Source: an uncultured Eubacteriales bacterium | GTDB lineage: Bacteria > Bacillota > Clostridia > Oscillospirales > CAG-382 | Assembly: GCA_934444645.1 (NCBI GenBank) | Contig: CAKSCV010000004.1 | Location: 59,209 to 123,208, forward strand | DNA: 64,000 bases | Reading direction: 5' to 3' | Part shown: piece by piece, positions 8,311-24,066 of the stretch | Numbering within the stretch: position 1 is the first letter of the stretch | Layout of the letters: every line of letters starts with the position of its first letter | Notes under the pieces: generated by a model | Databases searched by the model: none | The model's input: the letters and a program-made list of their open reading frames with translations, nothing else | What the model was told of the DNA's origin: nothing | Made by a program: the position numbers and the translations under genes

Positions 8311-9030
8311 ATGAGTTTGGTTTTTCCTGCAAATGCGTCGGAGGATTCGCTTCGGCTTCTTGCGGCGTGCCGTTTGTTTGATGGGATCGACCGCGCCGTT
8401 TTGCCGTCCGTTTTGGAAAAACTCGGTGCTGTCGAAAAGAAACGGCAAAAGGGCGAATTTTTCTTTCGGGAGGGCGATCCGGCTGAAAACGCCGGGATCT
8501 TGCTTTCCGGAAGGGCGCAGATTCTGCGCGACGATTATGACGGCCGGCGTCACGTTTTGGCAGAATTAGCGCCCGGCGATGTTTTCGGTGAAGTTTTTGC
8601 GTGTGCGGATGTAAAAACCTATCCGGTGTATGTGGAGGCGATTTGCGAGGCGGAGGCGTTGTTTGTCAATCTTGCTCTGCTTGAACAGAATCGCACCCCG
8701 GATGCGCACGAGGTGCGGCTGTTATACAATCTGCTTTTTGTCACGGCGCAGAAAAATCTGCTCTTAAACCGCAAAATCGAGCTTCTTTCCAAGCGAACGA
8801 CGCGGGAAAAACTCGCTTCGTTTTTGTGGATGAAGGCCAAAGAAGCCGGACAAGTGCACTTTACCGTTCCGTTTGACAGGCAGTCGCTTGCCGATTATCT
8901 CGGCGTGGATCGAAGCGCTATGTGTGCGGAGCTAAGCCGGATGCGCCGCGACGGATGGATCGATTATCACAAAAATGTATTTCGCATACAAAAAGCCGCA
9001 TTTGCGGAGAATACGGAAGAAAGCAGGTGA
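8311..9030 (+). CDS. Crp/Fnr family transcriptional regulator
   Basis: Has a cNMP-binding-like beta-roll (FFFREGDPAENAGILLSGRAQILRDDYDGRR ... PGDVFGE) and a C-terminal HTH (REKLASFL ... SLADYLGVDRSAMCAELSRMRRDGWI). RBS GGAGG lies 9 nt upstream. Confidence 0.9.
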   Translation: MSLVFPANASEDSLRLLAACRLFDGIDRAVLPSVLEKLGAVEKKRQKGEFFFREGDPAENAGILLSGRAQILRDDYDGRRHVLAELAPGDVFGEVFACADVKTYPVYVEAICEAEALFVNLALLEQNRTPDAHEVRLLYNLLFVTAQKNLLLNRKIELLSKRTTREKLASFLWMKAKEAGQVHFTVPFDRQSLADYLGVDRSAMCAELSRMRRDGWIDYHKNVFRIQKAAFAENTEESR

Positions 9031-9034
9031 AGGT

Positions 9035-9925
9035 ATGCCGCATTCAATGTCCGTGCCGTTATTCAATTATGCCGATTCAAACTTTATCGTACACCATACG
9101 GTCAGTGAAAACTTTGAAGATCCCTATACGCGCTTACATATGCACACCATGTATGAGTTATATTGCTTTTTGGACGGTGAAGGCGTGTTCACGGTGGAGG
9201 GAAATATATATAAGTTGGAAAGAGGTATGCTGCTTTTAATCCGACCGGGCGAAGCGCACAGCGCCAAAATCGTCAGCACCAGCCGGTATGAACGCATTGC
9301 CGTTCATTTTACGCCGTCTTTTTTGGAAAACGATTGCATCCGCGAAATGCTGCACGCCTTTGAAACGTCCAAAAACAGCAGTAACCATTGCTTCTTTTGC
9401 AACGATGAGAGCGCCTATCCGTTTAAGCTGTTACGCGAGATTACCAACTCGAAGCTGAAAGGGAATCATCCTGCCTGCAAATTAGCCTTGCAGGCAAATC
9501 TTCCGGCATTGCTTTACAGCCTTTCCGAAAACTGCTCGCACAAAGTTTCGGTGGACGGTACCTCGCACGACCAGCTGGTGCGTCAGATCCTACGCTATAT
9601 CGATTTGCATCTTTCGACCGAATGGTCCTTGGATGAGCTGGCTGAGCATTTGTATCGGGACAAAGCCTATCTGAACCGCCGCTTCAAAACCGTGGTCGGC
9701 ACCAGCATCTGGAATTATACCATCCAAAAACGCATTGTCAACGCGCAGCGCAGTCTGTACGACACCGGCAGCATTTCAAGTGCCTTTCAGGCCAGCGGCT
9801 TCAGCGACTATTCGACGTTTTACCGCAATTATAACCGTATTATCGGCATTTCGCCGTCGGATGACCTGAAGAACCGAAAATCCGATAAGGAGCGGCTATT
9901 GGGAATCATTAACCCCTATTGTTAA
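9035..9925 (+). CDS. AraC family transcriptional regulator
   Basis: ORF 8975-9925, start moved to ATG 9035 (RBS AGGTGAAGG), 4 nt after the crp-family stop codon. Has a cupin-like N-terminus and a C-terminal AraC HTH (LDELAEHLYRDKAYLNRRFKTVVGTSIWNYTIQKRI ... GFSDYSTFYRNYNRIIGISP). Confidence 0.88.
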   Translation: MPHSMSVPLFNYADSNFIVHHTVSENFEDPYTRLHMHTMYELYCFLDGEGVFTVEGNIYKLERGMLLLIRPGEAHSAKIVSTSRYERIAVHFTPSFLENDCIREMLHAFETSKNSSNHCFFCNDESAYPFKLLREITNSKLKGNHPACKLALQANLPALLYSLSENCSHKVSVDGTSHDQLVRQILRYIDLHLSTEWSLDELAEHLYRDKAYLNRRFKTVVGTSIWNYTIQKRIVNAQRSLYDTGSISSAFQASGFSDYSTFYRNYNRIIGISPSDDLKNRKSDKERLLGIINPYC

Positions 9926-9963
9926 AGGGTACGAAACGGCCTTCCCGCAATTTGTCCAACCGT

Positions 9964-10007
9964 CGAAAAACGACCGGCATTCAAAAGAACGCCGGTCGTT
10001 TTTCTCT
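9964..10007. terminator. bidirectional terminator (ends the pur-fhs operon and the araC gene)
   Basis: AAAAACGACCGGC (9966-9978) pairs with GCCGGTCGTTTTT (9991-10003). Confidence 0.8.
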
Positions 10008-10019
10008 ATAAACTGCCGC

Positions 10020-11696
10020 TTAAAATAATCCTGAAATCCTGCCGTTTTCGTCTACGTCGATCTTTTCGGCTGCCGGAACCTTCGGCAGACCCGGCATGGT
10101 CATGATGTCGCCGGTTAATACCACGATAAAACCGGCACCTGCCGAAACTTTGACGTTCTTGACGGTCACGCGGAAATGCTCCGGTGCACCGAGCTTTGTC
10201 GGATCGTCCGAAAAGCTGTATTGGGTCTTGGCAATGCAGACCGGAAGGGAAGAGAAGCCAAGCTCTGCAAGCGTCGCTATCTGCTTCTTTGCCGCCGGCA
10301 AGAAGTCAACGCCGTCGCCGCCGTAGATCTTCTTGACAACCGCTTCAATTTTATCTTCAATGCTTCCGGAAAGCTCATAGGAGAAGGAGAAATCGTTCGG
10401 CTTATCGCATAAGCGTACAACCTCTTCGGCAAGCTCGATGCCGCCCTCCGAACCCTTTGCCCAAACGTCCGACAGAACTGTATTGACGCCTAACTTGCGG
10501 CATTCGCGGATGACAAGCTCTACCTCTTCAACCGTGTCGGTCGGGAACTTGTTGACTGCCACGACTGCCGGAAGCTTGTAAACGTTCGTGATGTTGGAAA
10601 CATGGCGAAGAAGATTCGGAAGACCCTTTTGAAGTGCGTCAAGGTCAGGCGTGGCAAGTGCGGTTTTGGGAAGTCCGCCGTGCATTTTGAGCGCACGGAC
10701 GGTTGCAACCACAACGACGGCTGATGGGGTGAGTCCGGCATAGCGGCACTTGATATCCAAGAATTTCTCCGCACCCAAATCTGCGCCGAAACCGGCTTCG
10801 GTGACGGTATAATCGCCCATTTTGAGTGCCGTGCGTGTGGCAATGACCGAGTTGCAGCCATGGGCAATGTTGGCAAACGGGCCGCCGTGAACAAAGGCCG
10901 GCGTTCCTTCGAGCGTCTGCACAAGGTTCGGCTTTAAGGCGTCCTTTAATAAAGCCGCCATCGCGCCTTGCGCCTTTAGGTCGGAACAGGTCACCGGCTT
11001 TCCGTCATAGGTGTAGGCGACGATGATGCGCGAAAGACGTTCTTTGAGGTCGGTAAGGGAAGAGGCAAGGCAGAGAACCGCCATGATCTCCGACGCAACC
11101 GTGATATCAAAGCCGTCCTCACGCGGCGTGCCGTTGGCCTTGCCGCCGAGACCGTCCACGAGGTTGCGAAGCTGACGGTCGTTCATGTCCACGCAGCGCT
11201 TCCAGGTAATGCGGCGCACATCGATGCCAAGCGCATTGCCCTGTTGAATGTGGTTGTCGAGCATGGCGGCAAGCAGATTGTTGGCAGCACCGATGGCGTG
11301 AAAATCGCCGGTAAAGTGCAGATTGATATCCTCCATGGGAACTACCTGTGCATAACCGCCGCCGGCCGCTCCTCCTTTAATGCCGAAAACCGGGCCGAGC
11401 GACGGCTCACGAAGCGCTACCGTCACTTTTTTGCCGATCTTCTTTAAGCTGTCGGCAAGGCCGATGGTGGTGGTGGTTTTGCCCTCGCCGGCAGGCGTCG
11501 GCGTAATAGCCGTGACTAAAATCAGCTTTCCGTCCGGCGCGTCTTTGCGGTCGTTTAAGAGAGATAAATCGATCTTTGCCTTGTAAGAGCCGTACTGCTC
11601 GACGTATTTTGCGTCAATGCCCGCACTTGCGGCAATCTCGGAAATGTGCTTCATGTGGACGCTTTGAGCAATTTCAATGTCGGATTTGTAAGTCAT
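10020..11696 (-). CDS. fhs: formate--tetrahydrofolate ligase
   Basis: 558 aa with N-terminus [11 protein letters not shown], a P-loop ([15 protein letters not shown]) and full-length collinearity with Fhs. Only 11 nt separate it from the purL stop, so it appears to be the last gene of the pur operon. Confidence 0.97.
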
Positions 11697-15417: not shown

Positions 15418-16701
15418 TTAATTCTCCTTTTTGCCGATGGCGGCGAGTGCTTTCGCGCCGATATCCGTGCGATAGTAAGCGTTTTCAAAGGTGATATGCG
15501 GCACAATCTCGTAGGCGGCTTTAACGGCGTTTTCCAATGTGTCTGCCGTCGCCGTCACGCCCAAAACGCGTCCGCCGGATGTGAGCAGCTTCCCGTCCGC
15601 TGTTTTTGCGCCGGCTACATAAACATTGTCCTTGTACTTGTCCGGGAGCGTGATCGGGAAGCCCGATGCATATTTCTGCGGATAGCCGCTTGACGCTTCA
15701 ATGACGCAGCACGCCGCACCTTCTGAAAATTCAACGTCCGCCTTGTCAAGCGTTCCGTCGGTGGTCGCACGCATGACCGTGTACAGGTCGCTTTTCAACA
15801 GCGGCAGAACGACTTGCGTTTCGGGATCGCCGAACCGACAGTTGTATTCGATGACCTTCGGACCGTTTTCGGTCAACATCAGTCCAAAATACAGACAGCC
15901 CTTAAAGGTTCTGCCCTCGGCGTTCATGGCGCGAATGGTCGGCAGAAAGATTTTTTCCATGCATTCGTCCGCTGTTTCTTTGGTATAGTAGGGATTGGGC
16001 GCGACCGTTCCCATGCCGCCGGTGTTTAAGCCTCTGTCACCGTCCAGCGCGCGTTTGTGATCCATGGAGGAAACCATCGGAACAAGTGTTTTTCCGTCGG
16101 TAAAGGATAAAACCGAAACCTCCGGACCGGTTAAGAACTCCTCGATAACGACGCTTGCGCCGCTTTCGCCGAATACCTTGTCCTTCATCATGGAAATCAC
16201 GGCGTTTTTTGCTTCTTCACGCGTAGACGCAATGATAACGCCCTTGCCGAGTGCAAGTCCGTCTGCTTTGACCACCGTCGGAACCGGTGCGGTGTCAAGA
16301 TAGCGAAGTGCTGCGTCAAGTTCGGTGAAAACCTCATAAGCGGCGGTCGGAATGCCGTATTTTTTCATTAAGTTCTTGGAGAAAACCTTGCTGCCTTCGA
16401 TAATGGCCGCCTTCTTATTCGGACCGAATGCCGGAATGCCGCGTTCTTCGAGCGCATCCACCGCACCGAGAACCAACGGATCGTCCGGCGCGACGACCGC
16501 GTAATCCACCGCATGACTTACGGCAAAATCGCAGATTTTATCGATTTCCTTCGCACCGATAGCGACGCATTCGGCATCGTCTTTCATGCCGCCGTTGCCG
16601 GGCAGGGCGTAGATTTTTGTGATAGCGGGATTTTCTTTTAATTTTTTGATAATGGCGTGTTCTCTGCCGCCGCCACCGACGACTAAGAGCTTCATATACA
16701 A
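15418..16701 (-). CDS. purD: phosphoribosylamine--glycine ligase
   Basis: 427 aa (MKLLVVGGGGREHAI ... ATP-grasp ... VIEYNCRFGDPETQ). Confidence 0.96.
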   Translation of the reverse strand: MYMKLLVVGGGGREHAIIKKLKENPAITKIYALPGNGGMKDDAECVAIGAKEIDKICDFAVSHAVDYAVVAPDDPLVLGAVDALEERGIPAFGPNKKAAIIEGSKVFSKNLMKKYGIPTAAYEVFTELDAALRYLDTAPVPTVVKADGLALGKGVIIASTREEAKNAVISMMKDKVFGESGASVVIEEFLTGPEVSVLSFTDGKTLVPMVSSMDHKRALDGDRGLNTGGMGTVAPNPYYTKETADECMEKIFLPTIRAMNAEGRTFKGCLYFGLMLTENGPKVIEYNCRFGDPETQVVLPLLKSDLYTVMRATTDGTLDKADVEFSEGAACCVIEASSGYPQKYASGFPITLPDKYKDNVYVAGAKTADGKLLTSGGRVLGVTATADTLENAVKAAYEIVPHITFENAYYRTDIGAKALAAIGKKEN

Positions 16702-16790
16702 AACACTCCTTTTTTTATACCGGTTAATTTTTTACCGGTTAACCGCAAGCGGCGCGTCGCATTTTTCTGCGGCGCGCTTTTGCGATGAAT

Positions 16791-17975
16791 TTAGTGATGG
16801 AACAAACGCATACCGGTGAATGCCAGGACCATGCCGTACTTGTTGCAGGCGTCAATGACCGCGTCGTCGCGAATCGAGCCGCCCGGCTCGGCAATGTAGC
16901 TGACACCGCTGCTATGCGCACGCTCGATGTTGTCGGAAAACGGGAAAAACGCATCCGAACCGAGTGAAACGCCGGTGATCGTTTTGAGATAGTCCCTTGC
17001 TTCTTTGTCCGTAAGCGGTTCGGGACGGCGCGAAAAATAACGCTGCCAAACGCCGTCGGCGCAGACATCCTCTTCATTTTTGTTGATGTAGCCGTCGATG
17101 GCATTGTCGCGGTCGGCGCGGCCGAGCGTGTCAAGAAAGGGCAGGGAAAGCACCTTTTCGTGCTGCCGCAATTGCCATGTGTCGGCCTTGGTTCCGGCAA
17201 GTCTGGTGCAGTGAATGCGCGACTGCTGGCCTGCACCCACGCCGATGGCTTGTCCGTCATAGGCAAAGCAGACCGAATTGGATTGCGTGTACTTGAGAGT
17301 AATCAGCGAGATAATCAAATCGCGCACCGCGTTTTCGGGAAGATTTTTGTTTTCGGTCACAAGGTTCGAAAGCAGCGCACGGTCAATTTTGAAATTGTTG
17401 CGGCCTTGCTCAAACGTAATGCCGAACACCTGCTTGCGTTCGGTTTCTTCGGGTACATAGCCGGGATCGATCTTTACGATATTATACGCACCCTTGCGCT
17501 TGCTTTTTAAGATTTCAAGTGCTTTCGGCGTAAAGCCCGGCGCGATAACGCCGTCGGACACCTCACGCTTGATGAGAAGTGCCGTCGTCTCATCGCAAAC
17601 GTCGCTGAGCGCAATCCAGTCGCCGAACGAACACATGCGGTCAGTGCCCCTTGCTCTGGCAAATGCCATCGCAAGCGGTGAATCGTTCACACCGTCGATA
17701 TCATCGACAAAGCAAGCCTTTTGAAGCGACGGCGAGAGCGGAAGCCCAACGGCCGCCGAGGTGGGACTGACGTGCTTGAACGAGGTCGCACAGGCAAGGC
17801 CGGTTGCTTCCTTTAATTCCTTCACCAACTGCCACGAGTTGAACGCGTCAAGAAAGTTGATATAGCCCGGACGTCCCGAAAGGATCTCGATCGGAAGCTC
17901 GCTTGCGTCCGCCATATAAATGCGTGCCGGTTTTTGGTTGGGGTTGCAGCCGTATTTGAGTTCAAATTCTTTCAT
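16791..17975 (-). CDS. purH: AICAR formyltransferase, transformylase-only PurH (no MGS-like IMP cyclohydrolase domain)
   Basis: 394 aa (MKEFELKYGCNPNQKPARIY ... SNSVCFAYDGQAIGVGAGQQSRIHCTRLA ... GSLGSDAFFPF ... IAEPGGSIRD). Confidence 0.9.
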   Translation of the reverse strand: MKEFELKYGCNPNQKPARIYMADASELPIEILSGRPGYINFLDAFNSWQLVKELKEATGLACATSFKHVSPTSAAVGLPLSPSLQKACFVDDIDGVNDSPLAMAFARARGTDRMCSFGDWIALSDVCDETTALLIKREVSDGVIAPGFTPKALEILKSKRKGAYNIVKIDPGYVPEETERKQVFGITFEQGRNNFKIDRALLSNLVTENKNLPENAVRDLIISLITLKYTQSNSVCFAYDGQAIGVGAGQQSRIHCTRLAGTKADTWQLRQHEKVLSLPFLDTLGRADRDNAIDGYINKNEEDVCADGVWQRYFSRRPEPLTDKEARDYLKTITGVSLGSDAFFPFSDNIERAHSSGVSYIAEPGGSIRDDAVIDACNKYGMVLAFTGMRLFHH

Positions 17976-18007: not shown

Positions 18008-18727
18008 TTACGCGAAACGGTTGATAAGACGGTATTTTTCTTTGCCGGTTGCAAGGTCGGTGTAGCGGACATAGAGCGAAATCTTATTGTTTGCATCGAG
18101 ATGCTCCCAAATATCGGTCGAAAACGCGTCGATATCGTCGGGAATGCTCACACGCTCCGGTTCGCCCTGAAAGGTCGGCAGCGGTTCGCCGTCAGTCACA
18201 TAGGTGTGAAGAAAATGACCGAGTCCTTTTTTTGCCGGATAGGAAAACGTGTAGCGTGCGCAATCCGAGCCCTGCTTGTCGATGCTCTTCAAAATGCTCA
18301 TTTCATAGGTGAACGAGCCGTTTGCAAAGGTGAGCATACTGCTGATACGCGGCGTGAAATTCGGTTCATCCGGCTCAAAGGAACGTGTTTCGAGAGCTGC
18401 TTTGAAATCCTTGCCGTCTTTTATAAAGTCATAGATCGTGTCGGTTTGGTCGCCGTTTGTTACGATGAGTTTGTTTTCATAGGATCGAATTGCCGCGTAA
18501 ATGATGAGCGACGGGTCTTTGACCTTGGCCTTGTCGTAAGGCTCGGTGAAAAGCGCACCGTCCTTTAAGGTGAAAACACGGTTGCGGCTGTTGGCGCTTC
18601 TGCCCATAATAAAGTAGGCGATAACGGCATTCCGGCCGTTTTCGGAAAGTCCGGTGACAATGCCGCGTCCGACATACGGATTTCCGGCAATGCGTTCTCC
18701 GATGGTTTTGCTGTCGTAAATGTTCAT
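18008..18727 (-). CDS. purO: IMP cyclohydrolase, PurO (archaeal-type) family
   Basis: 239 aa. The N-terminus NPYVGRGIVTGLSENGRNAVIAYFIMGRSANSRNRVF matches my memory of the PurO-type IMP cyclohydrolase family. It lies immediately upstream of the transformylase-only purH. Confidence 0.8.
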   Translation of the reverse strand: MNIYDSKTIGERIAGNPYVGRGIVTGLSENGRNAVIAYFIMGRSANSRNRVFTLKDGALFTEPYDKAKVKDPSLIIYAAIRSYENKLIVTNGDQTDTIYDFIKDGKDFKAALETRSFEPDEPNFTPRISSMLTFANGSFTYEMSILKSIDKQGSDCARYTFSYPAKKGLGHFLHTYVTDGEPLPTFQGEPERVSIPDDIDAFSTDIWEHLDANNKISLYVRYTDLATGKEKYRLINRFA

Positions 18728-18779
18728 GGCTTACTCCTTTTTTGTGTACCGGTTTACTGTGTTTGATGCACCGGTATAC

Positions 18780-19391
18780 TTATTTCTGGCGCATATCGGC
18801 ACAGACCTTTTGTACTGCTGCCGGGAGAAGGATCCATTCGGCCTCCTCCATCACGCGCTTCTGTAAAATTTCCGGCGTGTCGCCGTCCTGTATTTCGACG
18901 GCTTTCTGTAGGATGATTTCACCGCCGTCCGGAATCTCGTTGACAAAATGTACCGTCGCGCCGGTCACCTTGACGCCGTAAGCAAGTGCGGCTTCATGTA
19001 CGTGCAACCCGTAAAAGCCCTCTCCGCAAAACGACGGGATGAGCGACGGATGCACATTGAGAATACGTCTTGGATACGCAGAGGTGAAGCTCTCGCTTAA
19101 AATGCACATGAATCCGGCAAGCACGATAAGACCGATGCCGTTTGCGTCTAAAACCGCACGGATTTTTGCTTCAAACGCTTCCCGTGTGCCGCATTCCTTT
19201 TTCTGCACGACCGCAGTCGGAATCCCGGCGGTCTTGGCACGCGTAAGCGCATAAGCGTCCGGCTTGTTTGATACGACGAGCGACAGAACGCCGTCTGTGA
19301 TCTTCCCGGCCTTTTGCGCGTCGATAAGGGCTTGCAGGTTTGTGCCGCCGCCCGAAACGAGAACGGCGACCTTGATGGGATTTTGGCTCAT
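18780..19391 (-). CDS. purN: phosphoribosylglycinamide formyltransferase
   Basis: 203 aa (KVAVLVSGGGTNLQALID ... NVHPSLIP). Confidence 0.95.
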   Translation of the reverse strand: MSQNPIKVAVLVSGGGTNLQALIDAQKAGKITDGVLSLVVSNKPDAYALTRAKTAGIPTAVVQKKECGTREAFEAKIRAVLDANGIGLIVLAGFMCILSESFTSAYPRRILNVHPSLIPSFCGEGFYGLHVHEAALAYGVKVTGATVHFVNEIPDGGEIILQKAVEIQDGDTPEILQKRVMEEAEWILLPAAVQKVCADMRQK

Positions 19392-20015: not shown

Positions 20016-21056
20016 TTAACCGCGAATAACGATTTTGTCGTCGGCACGAACGATTTTTCCAAGGATATACGCATCCTCGCCGGCACTTTTCAGTACGTCG
20101 AGTGCCGTGTCCGCCTGTTCTTTCGGAACGACCGCACTCATGCCCACGCCCATGTTGAAGGTGTTGAACATGTCGCGCTCATCAATGTTTCCGGTTTTTG
20201 CAATCAGGTCGAAAATCGGAAGTACCCGAACCGCCGCACGGTCGATTTCGGCACAAAGCCCGTCGGGAATGCTGCGCGGAATATTTTCGTAAAAGCCGCC
20301 GCCGGTGATGTGGGAAATGCCGCGAACCGTCACCTTTTCAAGAAGCGAAAGAATCGGTTTTACATAGATTTTGGTCGGCGTCAGCAGCGTTTCACCGACA
20401 CTTTTGCCGCAAAGCTCTGCGACAGGCGTTTTGATGTCGGCTTTTTCCACGTCGAACACCTTGCGTACAAGCGAAAAACCGTTGGAATGTACGCCGCTGG
20501 ACGGGAGCGCCACAATCACGTCACCCTCACGCATGGTTTTGTTGTCTAAAATCTTCTTTTTATCGACCGCACCGACCGCAAACCCGGCAAGGTCATATTC
20601 TTCGACCGGATAAAAGCCAGGCATTTCAGCCGTTTCGCCGCCGATGAGCGCCGCACCCGACTGCACACAGCCTTCTGCCACGCCCGAAACGATTTCGGCA
20701 ATGCGTTCCGGCACGTTTTTGCCGCAGGCGATATAATCGAGGAAGAAGAGCGGCTTTGCACCGCTGCAAATGATGTCGTTGACGCACATGGCAACACAGT
20801 CGATGCCGACCGTGTCGTGCTTGTCCATCAAAAACGCAAGCTTTAATTTGGTGCCGACGCCGTCTGTGCCGCTGACAAGCACCGGCTTTTCCATGCCGGT
20901 CACGTCAAGCTCAAACAGACCGCCGAAGCCGCCGATGTCTGAGCATACGCCGCTTGTCATGGTGCGTGCGATATGCGCTTTCATAAGCTCGACCGCTTTG
21001 TAGCCGGCAGTGATGTCCACACCGGCGTTTTTATAGCTTTCACTGTAACTTTTCAT
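20016..21056 (-). CDS. purM: phosphoribosylformylglycinamidine cyclo-ligase (AIR synthetase)
   Basis: 346 aa ([19 protein letters not shown] ... [13 protein letters not shown]). Confidence 0.96.
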
Positions 21057-21080: not shown

Positions 21081-22535
21081 TCATTCGCCTTTATCAAGCG
21101 GCAGTTTTTCTTCGAAACGGCTTTTCCCGTTGTCAAGCGGAATTTCGGTCGGATAGTTCCCGTCAAAGCAGGCGGCACAGTGGGAACACTGCTTGTTGTC
21201 GTGCGCCGCAAGCATACCGAGATGGTTGACGTTTAAGTAGCCGAGGCTGTCAACGCCGATGATCTTTGCAATTTCCTCCACCGAATGATGGCAGGCAATG
21301 AGTTTGTCGCGCGAATCGATGTCGGTGCCATAGTAGCAGGGATTTAAAAAGGGCGGTGCTGAAACACGCATATGGATTTCCTTTGCACCTGCGTCGCGAA
21401 GCAGCTTGATGACCGGCGCACTGGTCGTGCCGCGCACGATCGAGTCGTCAATCAAAACCACCCGTTTGCCGTCAACGGCCTCACGCACGACGTTGAGCTT
21501 GATACGAACCTTGTCCTCGCGTGACGATTGTCCGGGCGAAATAAAGGTTCGGGCAATGTACTTGTTTTTGATAAGCCCGATGCCGTAGGGAATGCCGCTC
21601 TGACGGGCATAGCCGATGGCTGCGTCAATGCCTGAATCGGGAACGCCGATGACAATGTCGGCCTGTACCGGATGTTCGAGAGCCAAAAACGCACCGGCAC
21701 GCAGTCTTGCCGTGTGTACCGAGCAGCCGTCGAGCTGGCTGTCGGGGCGGGCAAAATAGATGTATTCGAAAATGCAGATCTTCTTTTCTGCCTTGCCGCA
21801 GTGATCGGTGATCGAGCGAACGCCGTTTTTGTCAAACACGACGATTTCGCCCGGCTCAACATCGCGGATAAACGAAGCGCCGACCGCGTCAAGCGCACAG
21901 CTTTCCGAAGCGACAATGTAGCGGCCGTCCTCGGTCTTGCCGTAGCAGAGCGGCCGGAAGCCGTGCTCATCGCGCACGGCAATTAACTTCGACGGCGACA
22001 TGAGTACGAGCGAATACGCACCCTTTATCCGGTTCATGGCGCGGTTTACGGCTTCTTCTACCGACGAAGAATGAATGCGCTCTTTGGTGATGACATAGGA
22101 GATGACCTCCGTGTCACTGGTCGTGTGGAAGATCGAGCCTTCAAGCTCCAATTCCTCGCGAAGAGCCAAAGAGTTGACCAAATTTCCGTTGTGCGCCAGT
22201 GCCATGCGTCCTTTGATATGATTGACCACAATGGGTTGGGCGTTGACGCGGTCGTTCGAGCCGGTCGTACCGTAACGCACGTGCGCGACCGCCATGTTGC
22301 CGCTTCCGAGACCGGCTAAAACGCGCGGCGTGAAAACATCGTTGACGAGTCCCAAATCCTTGTAGGAGTTGAACAGACCGCGGTCACCGACAACGATCCC
22401 GGCACTCTCTTGACCGCGGTGCTGGAGGGCGAACAGCCCATAGTAGCAGGTTGAGGCAACGTCGCAGGTCTCCGGCGCGAAAACGCCGAAAACGCCGCAT
22501 TCCTCGTGAATTTCGTGATTTTTGGTATATGTCAT
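21081..22535 (-). CDS. purF: amidophosphoribosyltransferase
   Basis: 484 aa (HEECGVFGVF ... Ntn glutaminase ... PRTase motif VVLIDDSIVRGTT, plus C-terminal Cys residues). Confidence 0.96.
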   Translation of the reverse strand: MTYTKNHEIHEECGVFGVFAPETCDVASTCYYGLFALQHRGQESAGIVVGDRGLFNSYKDLGLVNDVFTPRVLAGLGSGNMAVAHVRYGTTGSNDRVNAQPIVVNHIKGRMALAHNGNLVNSLALREELELEGSIFHTTSDTEVISYVITKERIHSSSVEEAVNRAMNRIKGAYSLVLMSPSKLIAVRDEHGFRPLCYGKTEDGRYIVASESCALDAVGASFIRDVEPGEIVVFDKNGVRSITDHCGKAEKKICIFEYIYFARPDSQLDGCSVHTARLRAGAFLALEHPVQADIVIGVPDSGIDAAIGYARQSGIPYGIGLIKNKYIARTFISPGQSSREDKVRIKLNVVREAVDGKRVVLIDDSIVRGTTSAPVIKLLRDAGAKEIHMRVSAPPFLNPCYYGTDIDSRDKLIACHHSVEEIAKIIGVDSLGYLNVNHLGMLAAHDNKQCSHCAACFDGNYPTEIPLDNGKSRFEEKLPLDKGE

Positions 22536-22621: not shown

Positions 22622-23332
22622 TTATTCGCCTAAAAGACGCTTGCGGATCTCGATGTACGCATCCTCCACATGACCGAGGTCACGGCGGAAACGGTCTTTG
22701 TCGAGCTTTTCATGGGTCTTGCTGTCCCAAAAACGGCAGGTGTCGGGCGAGATCTCATCGGCAAGAACGATTTTTCCGTCGGAGGTTCTGCCAAATTCCA
22801 GCTTAAAATCGACAAGCTCAATGCCGAGACCGAGAAAATATTTTTTCAAGACCTCGTTGACCTTGAAGGCGAGTGTCTTGATGGTCTCGATTTCTTCTTT
22901 GGTTGCAAGCTTCAGGGCAAGTGCATGGTACGAATTGATGAGCGGATCGCCGAGATCGTCGTTTTTGTAGGAAAATTCGATGGTCGGCTCGTCAAAGACA
23001 ATGCCTTCCTCAACGCCGTAACGCTTGGCAAAGCTTCCGGCGGAAATGTTGCGGATGATGACCTCAAGTGGTACGATGCTTACTTTTTTAACGACGGTTT
23101 CGCGGTCGCTTAATTCCTTGACAAAGTGCGTCGGAACGCCTTCTTTTTCAAGCATTTGCATCAGATAGTTGGTCACGCGGTTGTTGATGACGCCCTTGCC
23201 GGATATCGTGCCTTTTTTAAGGCCGTTGAATGCGGTTGCGTCGTCCTTGTAATCGACAATGACGAGATTTTCGTCGGTCGTGGCGTAAACTTTCTTGGCT
23301 TTGCCTTCATAAAGCTGTACGGTCTTTTCCAT
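22622..23332 (-). CDS. purC: phosphoribosylaminoimidazole-succinocarboxamide synthase
   Basis: ORF 22622-23464, start moved to the ATG at 23332 (RBS AAGGAGA). The protein begins [18 protein letters not shown]. Confidence 0.95.
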
Positions 23333-23369
23333 TTGAATTCTCCTTGTCTGTTTTATAGGTGTTGATCTG

Positions 23370-23870
23370 TTATATCCTTGCGTTAAAGCGTTCTTCAATG
23401 GCCTTGTTTTTTTCGATGACCTTGTCATGCCCGGCGCATCTTGCTTGGGCAAGCTTGCTTTCAAGCGTTTCGTCAGTCACGGCTAAAATTTCGATACAAA
23501 GCAAAGCGGCGTTGACGGCACCTCCGATGGCAACTGTTGCAACCGGAATGCCGCTCGGCATCTGAACAGTCGAAAGAAGTGCGTCAACACCGTCGAGAAC
23601 GGTTGATTTTACGGGGATTCCGATTACGGGGAGTGTGGTGTTTGCAGCGATAGCTCCTGCAAGGTGCGCAGCCATGCCGGCGGCGGCGATGATGGCGCCA
23701 AAGCCGTTCGCGCGTGCGGAAAGTGCAAAGGCGCGTGCCTCCTCGGGCGTGCGGTGAGCCGAATATACGTGTACCTCATACGGCACGCCGTAATCCTTTA
23801 AGGTGTCGATCGCCTTTTCGACGATCGGGAGATCACTGTCGCTGCCCATGATGACGGCAACTTTTTTCAT
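23370..23870 (-). CDS. purE: 5-(carboxyamino)imidazole ribonucleotide mutase (class I-type PurE)
   Basis: ORF 23370-23930, start moved to the ATG at 23870 (RBS GAAAGGAA). The protein begins [17 protein letters not shown]. The SAHRTP and [10 protein letters not shown] motifs are the class I signature. Confidence 0.93.
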
Positions 23871-23914
23871 GTGTTCACATTCCTTTCTTGTCTGTTCCCG
23901 AGCGGATGAGCCGG

Positions 23915-24025
23915 GAAAACAAAAAGACACACTTACTCTGACGAAGCAAGTGTGCCCAGACGGTCGGCGAGTATGTTCTCTGTTCCCTTGTGGTGATCCA
24001 CATTTCCGTCAGTTGCAGAGAATTT
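23915..24025 (-). promoter_or_regulatory. ZTP (pfl-motif) riboswitch with intrinsic-terminator expression platform
   Basis: The minus-strand RNA reads: P1 UUCUCUG; CAACUGACGGAAAU; P2 GUGG-AUCA-CCAC; AAGGGAA; P1' CAGAGAA; linker CAUACUCGCCGA; CCGUCUGGGCA (aptamer about 23953-24022). CCGUC is complementary to GACGG, giving the pseudoknot. A terminator follows (CACACUU...AAGUGUG plus UCUUUUUGUUUU, 23915-23955) and overlaps the GGGCACAC tail. Confidence 0.8.
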
Positions 24026-24037
24026 CGTTCAAGAACT

Positions 24038-24066
24038 ATTATAGCAGCAAACGGGCAAAATGTCAA
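24038..24066 (-). promoter_or_regulatory. consensus sigma-A promoter of the pur operon
   Basis: Minus strand: TTGACA (24066-24061), exactly 17 nt, then TATAAT (24043-24038). Confidence 0.75.

Follow-up and report, generated by a model that had tools for sequence, protein, structure and literature searches.

A ZMP/ZTP riboswitch of canonical type, predicted to act as a transcriptional ON switch, in front of an eleven-gene purine and one-carbon gene cluster in an uncultured clostridium

Results

The purE–fhs gene cluster and its leader region

In the 64-kb window (the whole stretch of 64,000 nucleotides analyzed here, which originates from an uncultured Eubacteriales bacterium), eleven genes for purine synthesis and one-carbon metabolism are arranged head to tail on the minus strand, beginning with purE and ending with fhs (Table 1). 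The gene list given in an initial annotation, which had been made from the sequence alone, was confirmed by NCBIfam or Pfam in all identities and in its order. The true starts of purC (23335), the FNT gene (20011) and purD (16695) fall inside the longest open reading frames (ORFs). A ribosome-binding site, AGGA, is located at 23884–23881 in front of purE. The AICAR formyltransferase activity of PurH, the form encoded in this cluster, consumes ZMP and 10-formyl-tetrahydrofolate (10-formyl-THF).

Table 1. Features of the purE–fhs cluster and its leader, with positions numbered as in the window
Feature	Position	Strand	Evidence
Sigma-70-type promoter	24038..24066	-	Consensus scan, 12/12 hexamer positions plus TG
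ZMP/ZTP aptamer (pfl motif)	23947..24026	-	RF01750, 59 bits; clade model, 86 bits; covariation
P1	UUCUCUG 24022-24016 / CAGAGAA 23982-23976	-	7 bp; sequence and cmscan alignment
P2	GUGG 24001-23998 / CCAC 23993-23990, loop AUCA	-	4 bp; sequence and cmscan alignment
Pseudoknot	GACGG 24010-24006 / CCGUC 23963-23959	-	5 bp; sequence and cmscan alignment
P3	GCC 23968-23966 / GGC 23956-23954	-	Sequence and cmscan alignment
Intrinsic terminator (expression platform)	23915..23957	-	Pattern scan and folding
purE (N5-CAIR mutase/AIR carboxylase family)	23370..23870	-	TIGR01162, 194.6 bits; PF00731
purC (SAICAR synthase)	22622..23335	-	TIGR00081, 255.9 bits; start corrected
purF (amidophosphoribosyltransferase)	21081..22535	-	TIGR01134, 521 bits
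purM (AIR synthase)	20016..21056	-	TIGR00878, 448 bits
FNT-family channel, 207 aa	19388..20011	-	PF01226, 91.4 bits (gathering 34.6)
purN (GAR formyltransferase, uses 10-formyl-THF)	18780..19391	-	TIGR00639, 205.9 bits
PurO-like IMP cyclohydrolase	18008..18727	-	PF07826, 196.8 bits; under the archaeal purO equivalog cut-off
purH, AICAR formyltransferase-only form	16791..17975	-	NF005492, 665.7 bits (cut-off 415)
purD (GAR synthetase)	15418..16695	-	TIGR00877, 520.7 bits; start corrected
purL, fused large FGAM synthase, 1235 aa	11708..15415	-	Pfam GATase_5, AIRS_C, FGAR-AT linker
fhs (formate-tetrahydrofolate ligase)	10020..11696	-	NF010030, 938 bits
Bidirectional terminator after fhs	9966..10003	both	13-bp G+C-rich stem, A-tract and U-tract flanks

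The whole window was scanned against all 4227 Rfam families at the gathering threshold. RF01750 (ZMP/ZTP riboswitch, pfl motif) was the sole match in the 64 kb, at 24026..23947 on the minus strand, with an E-value of 5e-7 and a score of 59 bits versus a gathering score of 39; the match covers model positions 1–86, that is, the complete model without truncation. Apart from the ZTP match, the Rfam search of the whole window revealed no further RNA regulator, for example a T-box or a purine riboswitch. The initial annotation had proposed a ZTP riboswitch on this strand and had named a covariance-model search as the means of checking it; the search placed the element well over the curated Rfam threshold. 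The aptamer ends 77 nt before the purE start codon, and thus occupies the leader position expected for RF01750, 5′ of purine and 10-formyl-THF genes.

Upstream of the aptamer, the previously proposed TTGACA-17-TATAAT promoter scored 12/12 in a consensus scan. It consists of TTGACA (24066–24061), a 17-nt spacer and TG-C-TATAAT (24046–24038, with TATAAT at 24043–24038). By our own arithmetic, the chance expectation of a perfect 12/12 site is approximately 0.006 in 17 kb, counting both strands. Transcription would be expected to start near 24031–24029, approximately 8 nt before P1, and promoters of similar type are located directly 5′ of the aptamer in most relatives. A gene for a DeoR-family regulator lies upstream of the riboswitch locus. 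The 54 nt between this gene and the -35 hexamer were inspected visually for a PurR box of the Bacillus type; no convincing candidate was seen, and nothing in the same 54 nt was conserved in locus L007 or in more distant relatives.

Relatives of the locus were collected by a scan with the FNT protein, taking one genome per species, which yielded 80 loci. Nearly all of them were from metagenome-assembled genomes of uncultured gut or rumen Clostridia whose annotation placed them in the Oscillospiraceae, Acutalibacteraceae or Ruminococcaceae; the closest, UMGS882 and HGM12628, were 92.7% and approximately 89% identical in nucleotide sequence across the operon, respectively. According to tblastn searches with the window proteins, the FNT gene was embedded among pur genes in 39 of the 80 loci (for example, L002:10001–10621), and the complete eleven-gene order was present in 11 loci with long enough contigs. 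In many relatives the protein in the purF slot shared only 27–34% identity with PurF of the window (L006:7538–8698, L008:7478–8767 and L013:7877–8911), and L018 and L026 held both a 75% and an approximately 30% copy, which suggests that a divergent amidotransferase paralogue may occupy the purF slot in those relatives. Some relatives also carried insertions of 0.4–1.5 kb at the riboswitch–purE, purH–purD or purL–fhs junction (L053:717–1138, L068:8229–9285 and L048:18348–19905).

The cluster is most likely one transcription unit

The gaps inside the cluster range from a 4-nt overlap to approximately 89 nt, and the gene pairs purM–FNT, FNT–purN, purD–purL and purL–fhs touch or overlap. In a pattern scan, promoter-like sites (12 versus 10.7 expected from shuffled sequence) and terminator-like sites (33 versus 28.7) occurred at chance level, and the only outstanding sites were the riboswitch promoter and its terminator. 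The claim that no other terminator precedes position 10007 held, since no convincing internal one was found and a strong one is located at 10003..9966. The 65-nt stretch 9955–10019 containing this terminator folds at -34.1 kcal/mol, and the terminator also serves a convergent AraC-family gene downstream. The terminator at 9966–10003 was absent from the list produced by the pattern scan on both strands, though it seemingly meets the criteria of that scan. Owing to the tight packing, the overlaps, the conserved order, the gaps of 19–35 nt in distant relatives and the lack of internal signals, a single unit is favored, and one transcript running from purE to fhs appears most likely.

Alternatively, the riboswitch could be real and gate only part of the cluster, with internal promoters, terminators or processing, especially in the purC–purF and purH–purD gaps, uncoupling purD, purL and fhs from it. 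These two gaps are the longest in the cluster (86 nt and approximately 89 nt, respectively) and hold stable hairpins; a promoter-like site matching 10/12 positions is located inside purH at 17510–17481; and some relatives carry insertions of 1–1.5 kb between purO, purH, purD or purL and fhs, indicating that the operon junctions tolerate interruption. However, sequence inspection and folding revealed no U-tract after the hairpins in any intergenic gap, the hairpins are present in the two closest relatives only, and the gaps shrink to 19–35 nt in distant relatives. The chance-level frequency of promoter-like sites and the four touching or overlapping gene pairs also argue against partial control, which we regard as somewhat unlikely. 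With the cluster taken as a single unit, the hairpins in the purC–purF and purH–purD gaps could nevertheless attenuate or process the transcript, or modulate distal expression, in this lineage.

Several repeats were noted in the cluster. ACCGGT-containing repeats form hairpins in 18728–18779 and 16696–16790 on the minus strand: TTAACCGGTA occurs twice before purD, UACCGGU...ACCGGUA is located before purO, and a G+C-rich hairpin follows purH. The sequence AACCGGTA is found four times on the minus strand, every copy being within the operon. We rejected the ACCGGT repeats as a conserved regulatory motif, because they were found only in the nearest relatives, L001 and L002, and were absent where the gaps measure 19–35 nt; they are lineage-specific.

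A second perfect site, TTGACA-16-TATAAT with TG, is located at 9741..9714 on the minus strand, antisense within the portion of the AraC-family gene (8975–9925, plus strand) that encodes the HTH. This site was not accepted as a working promoter, because no ORF follows it, it is kept in L001 only together with a near-identical AraC gene, and L002 differs downstream of fhs. A cryptic or antisense promoter is the probable explanation.

Structure of the aptamer

The 5′ sub-domain of the aptamer consists of P1 and P2 with the conserved ACUG.CGG junction, and the J1/2 junction reads ACUGACGGAAA. The 3′ sub-domain is a P3 hairpin with CCG.CUGGGC, whose loop forms the pseudoknot with J1/2. The helices described in the initial annotation were all recovered, but the segment regarded there as a linker, CAUACUCGCCGA, was found to hold the 5′ strand of P3, which had not been recognized. 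The same annotation interpreted GACGG/CCGUC as a compensated and uncommon variant of the pseudoknot. The first half of that description is correct relative to the Rfam consensus, GGCG/CGCC being replaced by GACG/CGUC here (a compensated change from G-C to A-U). The second half is not, because the pfl aptamer of Clostridium beijerinckii (Cbe), which belongs to the most thoroughly studied riboswitch of the class, has exactly this pseudoknot. The Cbe pfl aptamer reads ...GACUGACGGAA...GGCCGACCGUCUGGGCC (supplementary sequences of the tug-of-war preprint, bioRxiv 10.64898/2026.06.17.733018), and its J1/2 (ACUGACGGAA) and 3′ element (GCCGACCGUCUGGGC) are identical to those of the window aptamer. 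This identity of the core gives us more confidence that ZMP/ZTP would be the ligand, and for the same reason no novelty is claimed for the pseudoknot.

The terminator shares three to four nucleotides with the aptamer

The terminator stem (23957–23925, 14 pairs) begins at the GGGC of CUGGGC, within the aptamer, and its tail UUUUGUUUUC reaches 23915, with the U-tract at 23925–23916. A terminator thus overlaps the 3′ part of the aptamer, as in the platform of an ON switch. The overlap amounts to 3–4 nt only, in which the lowest 3–4 pairs of the stem use GGGC, the 3′ strand of P3. The full terminator stem folds at -17.0 kcal/mol. Without GGGC, the stem is reduced to a 10-pair hairpin of -11.2 kcal/mol, which stops 3 nt before the U-tract and adjoins P3 with a spacer of 0 nt. 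In the unconstrained minimum-free-energy (MFE) fold, GGGC pairs as part of the terminator stem rather than of P3.

This layout is conserved in the clade. A terminator starting at GGGC and followed by a U-tract was present in 21/21 sequences despite differing stem sequences, and in all 21 the 3′ arm ended with a complement of GGGC (GCCC, GUCU, GCC or similar) right before the U-tract. The spacers between P3 and the terminator hairpin in relatives are 0–2 nt. The ON layout deduced in the initial annotation, in which the aptamer tail doubles as the 5′ arm of a terminator with a U-tract, is therefore borne out, with GGGC as the element shared with P3 in 21/21 sequences.

The overlap is small (3–4 nt, versus 15 nt in Cbe pfl, the model switch), and strand exchange and steric hindrance may each have a share in the switching. 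[quoted passage not shown] Such a mechanism is consistent with the fact that 10 of the 14 terminator pairs use no aptamer nucleotides and, with a spacer of 0 nt, are compatible with a formed P3, as well as with the 0–2-nt spacers of the relatives. A purely steric design, however, needs no GGGC complement at the end of the 3′ arm, and this complement was found in 21/21 sequences; moreover, the MFE fold assigns GGGC to the terminator rather than to P3. A mainly steric mechanism is therefore considered unlikely. The overlap geometry lies between the classical and the tug-of-war designs, and from the folds and alignments the platform would be a classical design with minimal overlap and a possible steric contribution. 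Strand competition and tug-of-war effects could add together.

Conservation, covariation and class assignment

A covariance model was built from the clade sequences, and loci with >150 nt of sequence 5′ of purE served as the denominator. One aptamer directly 5′ of purE was detected by this model in 24 of the 26 loci. Rfam at its gathering threshold independently confirmed 7 of the 8 riboswitch-bearing relatives that were scanned, so that the covariance-model check held in relatives as well as in the window. The eighth, L049:3940–4024, in which a further pseudoknot pair is compensated (GACAG/CUGUC), scored 62.6 bits with the clade model; it is below the Rfam gathering threshold and would therefore be missed by routine Rfam annotation. 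In L016:2200–2560 and L029:6850–7200, neither a ZTP aptamer nor any other Rfam element was found before purE. In both loci the pur operon is the same, except that purM is lacking before FNT, and it stands behind a plain promoter-like region that follows an upstream terminator, indicating that the switch is dispensable for the operon as such.

For the analysis of covariation, an alignment of 21 sequences to the model was used, the pseudoknot was written in and the pairs were counted. Standard pairs occupied 96.8% of the cells, as compared with 35–49% when the 3′ partners were slid by 1–3 columns, bearing in mind that an alignment fitted to the model leans toward the structure in its pair counts. 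Changes on both sides were observed in 11/21 pairs versus 6.0 ± 1.2 in shuffles, and 0/500 shuffles reached 11. Compensated pairs made up 6/7 in P1 and 2/4 in P2 across the 21 sequences. In the pseudoknot, all five pairs were formed in every sequence (100%), and two of them were compensated (AU:20/GC:1 and GC:20/AU:1). Both the controls with slid partners and the independent Rfam matches argue that the covariation signal is real.

Knowledge of the ZMP/ZTP riboswitch class dates back to 2010 and its validation to 2015, for which Kim et al. 2015 is reportedly the primary paper. The element described here is an ordinary member of this well-studied class, in a canonical context and detectable by routine Rfam annotation. 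Taken together, the Rfam match, the conserved fold and the shared GGGC point to a ZMP/ZTP riboswitch of the canonical pfl-motif type that works as an ON switch of transcription, a reading to which we assign a probability of roughly 0.88. One departure from the Rfam consensus was observed at model position 41, where a conserved G is replaced by A in the window and the position is variable across the clade. This loss of the consensus G would fit a ZTP-fold variant that binds a different ligand; such a variant is nevertheless very unlikely, given that the pseudoknot, P3 loop and J1/2 are identical to those of the validated Cbe pfl aptamer, that the score is far over the gathering threshold, and that the genes represent the canonical ZMP and 10-formyl-THF node. 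A functionless chance resemblance, in favor of which no point was counted, is refuted by the conservation of the aptamer with compensatory changes before purE in 24 loci, in addition to the E-value of 5e-7, and its probability is negligible.

An FNT channel gene between purM and purN

The start of the FNT gene is 4 nt past the purM stop codon, and the end of the gene overlaps the start of purN; in relatives, the median distance from purM is 2 nt. Its product belongs to the FNT family according to its PF01226 score (Table 1) and to the presence of the central His (FEHSIAD) and of the Thr (LYTG), both of which were aligned with NirC and HSC structures, and it falls under the FocA and NirC equivalog cut-offs. 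Because the gene abuts purM, keeps the His and Thr and shares the operon with fhs, uptake of formate is its most economical role, and the embedded protein is probably a formate channel feeding Fhs. A literature search for FNT or formate transporters under ZTP or pur-operon control returned nothing relevant. At FNT homologues outside pur operons, a search with the clade model for a ZTP switch gave no significant match (best E approximately 0.3, far from the gene).

Discussion

ZMP (AICAR ribotide), a substrate of PurH, accumulates when 10-formyl-THF is limiting. On the basis of the structures described above, we propose the following mechanism. RNA polymerase would start at the strong promoter approximately 8 nt before P1, transcribe the aptamer and, approximately 29 nt past P3, meet the U-tract preceded by the 14-pair hairpin, whose lowest 3–4 pairs, beside the U-tract, require GGGC, the GGC of which is the 3′ strand of P3. 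When ZMP/ZTP is scarce, the downstream strand would strip GGGC from P3 and complete the full terminator, and transcription would end near 23916–23925. When ZMP/ZTP is high, that is, when 10-formyl-THF is short, the ligand would lock the pseudoknot and P3, leaving the weaker 10-pair hairpin, 3 nt short of the U-tract and abutting the aptamer, so that polymerase could read through into purE. Read-through would most likely give one transcript ending at the terminator after fhs. Such a transcript would raise the whole de novo purine pathway, including PurN and PurH, which use 10-formyl-THF, together with Fhs, which makes 10-formyl-THF from formate, and the FNT channel, which probably admits formate. 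In the ZTP class in general, sequence downstream of the aptamer displaces P3 and the pseudoknot in the absence of ligand and forms a terminator, and ZMP stabilizes the pseudoknot and P3, thereby blocking the terminator (PMC10085676; PMC7337938).

The genes downstream of the switch agree with this assignment. The pfl motif typically precedes purH, fhs, pfl, glyA, folD and other purine genes (PMC2864571; PMC7266159; PMC10912719), and the operon in the window, with purH, purN and fhs among its genes, fits the ZTP regulon as previously described (Weinberg 2010, PMC2864571; PMC7266159).

The analysis provides a correct annotation of the element that would chiefly control purine synthesis in an uncultured lineage of human-gut Clostridia. 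Nothing in it challenges the current understanding of the class, and the residual interest lies in the conserved minimal-overlap platform and in the FNT channel inside the regulon. The platforms of the clade represent a conserved natural series with minimal overlap, which could help to separate strand displacement from steric (tug-of-war) effects. The short, uncharacterized FNT subfamily gains a testable role, namely formate uptake for 10-formyl-THF synthesis. A broader proposal, which we put forward tentatively and consider possible rather than probable, is that in the Oscillospiraceae/Acutalibacteraceae clade the ZTP switch would be the sole cis-regulator of the complete de novo purine pathway, that strand competition and tug-of-war would operate together at the 3–4-nt platform, and that the FNT protein, translationally coupled between purM and purN, would be a ZMP-induced formate importer for Fhs. 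If this were true, folate or one-carbon stress would be answered by the uptake of environmental formate.

Among known systems, the C. beijerinckii pfl switch (Strobel, Bushhouse and Lucks; PMC10085676) belongs to the same aptamer family and shares the A-U pseudoknot pair. It is a transcriptional ON switch in which the terminator competes with P3, nucleating at the 3′ strand of P3 and migrating through the pseudoknot (PMC10085676). Its terminator 5′ arm comprises approximately 15 aptamer nucleotides, whereas only GGGC is used here, at the stem base beside the U-tract, and its downstream gene is pfl rather than the purE of an eleven-gene operon. The ZMP riboswitch of Thermosinus carboxydivorans likewise has an aptamer of the pfl motif, composed of P1, P2, P3 and a pseudoknot, and its ZMP-stabilized pseudoknot is the antiterminator (PMC7337938). 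It differs in host phylum and in terminator geometry, the first terminator pairs that invade P3 setting the decision window there (PMC7337938).

Tug-of-war ZTP switches make up approximately 10% of the natural examples, mostly in Bacilli, and contain an adjacent, non-overlapping terminator that is blocked sterically (bioRxiv 10.64898/2026.06.17.733018). According to the same preprint, terminators of this kind function poorly with E. coli RNA polymerase. The switch in the window resembles them in having a self-contained terminator hairpin immediately (0–2 nt) after P3 and in its Gram-positive host. In contrast to these switches, which are defined by zero overlap, it has an overlap of 3–4 nt with conserved complementarity, and it occurs in Clostridia and not in Bacilli. 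Measured against the limits of the preprint (a spacer of <5 nt and a stem below about -15 kcal/mol), the spacer is 0 nt and the stem has -17.0 kcal/mol in full and -11.2 kcal/mol in its non-overlapping part. The screening criterion of the preprint is that both hairpins form together; because the MFE fold places GGGC in the terminator, the switch is not of the tug-of-war type by that criterion.

In B. subtilis, purE is the first gene of one single large pur operon, and a guanine riboswitch with an intrinsic terminator separates it from the promoter (PMC10912719). The arrangement in the window is alike in that a riboswitch with a terminator lies between the promoter and purE. The two differ in signal and in sense, since guanine turns the operon OFF in B. 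subtilis, whereas here a pathway intermediate or alarmone would turn it ON. The ZTP switch thus sits where Bacillus has a guanine OFF switch, and in this lineage the alarmone or intermediate would govern the entire pathway.
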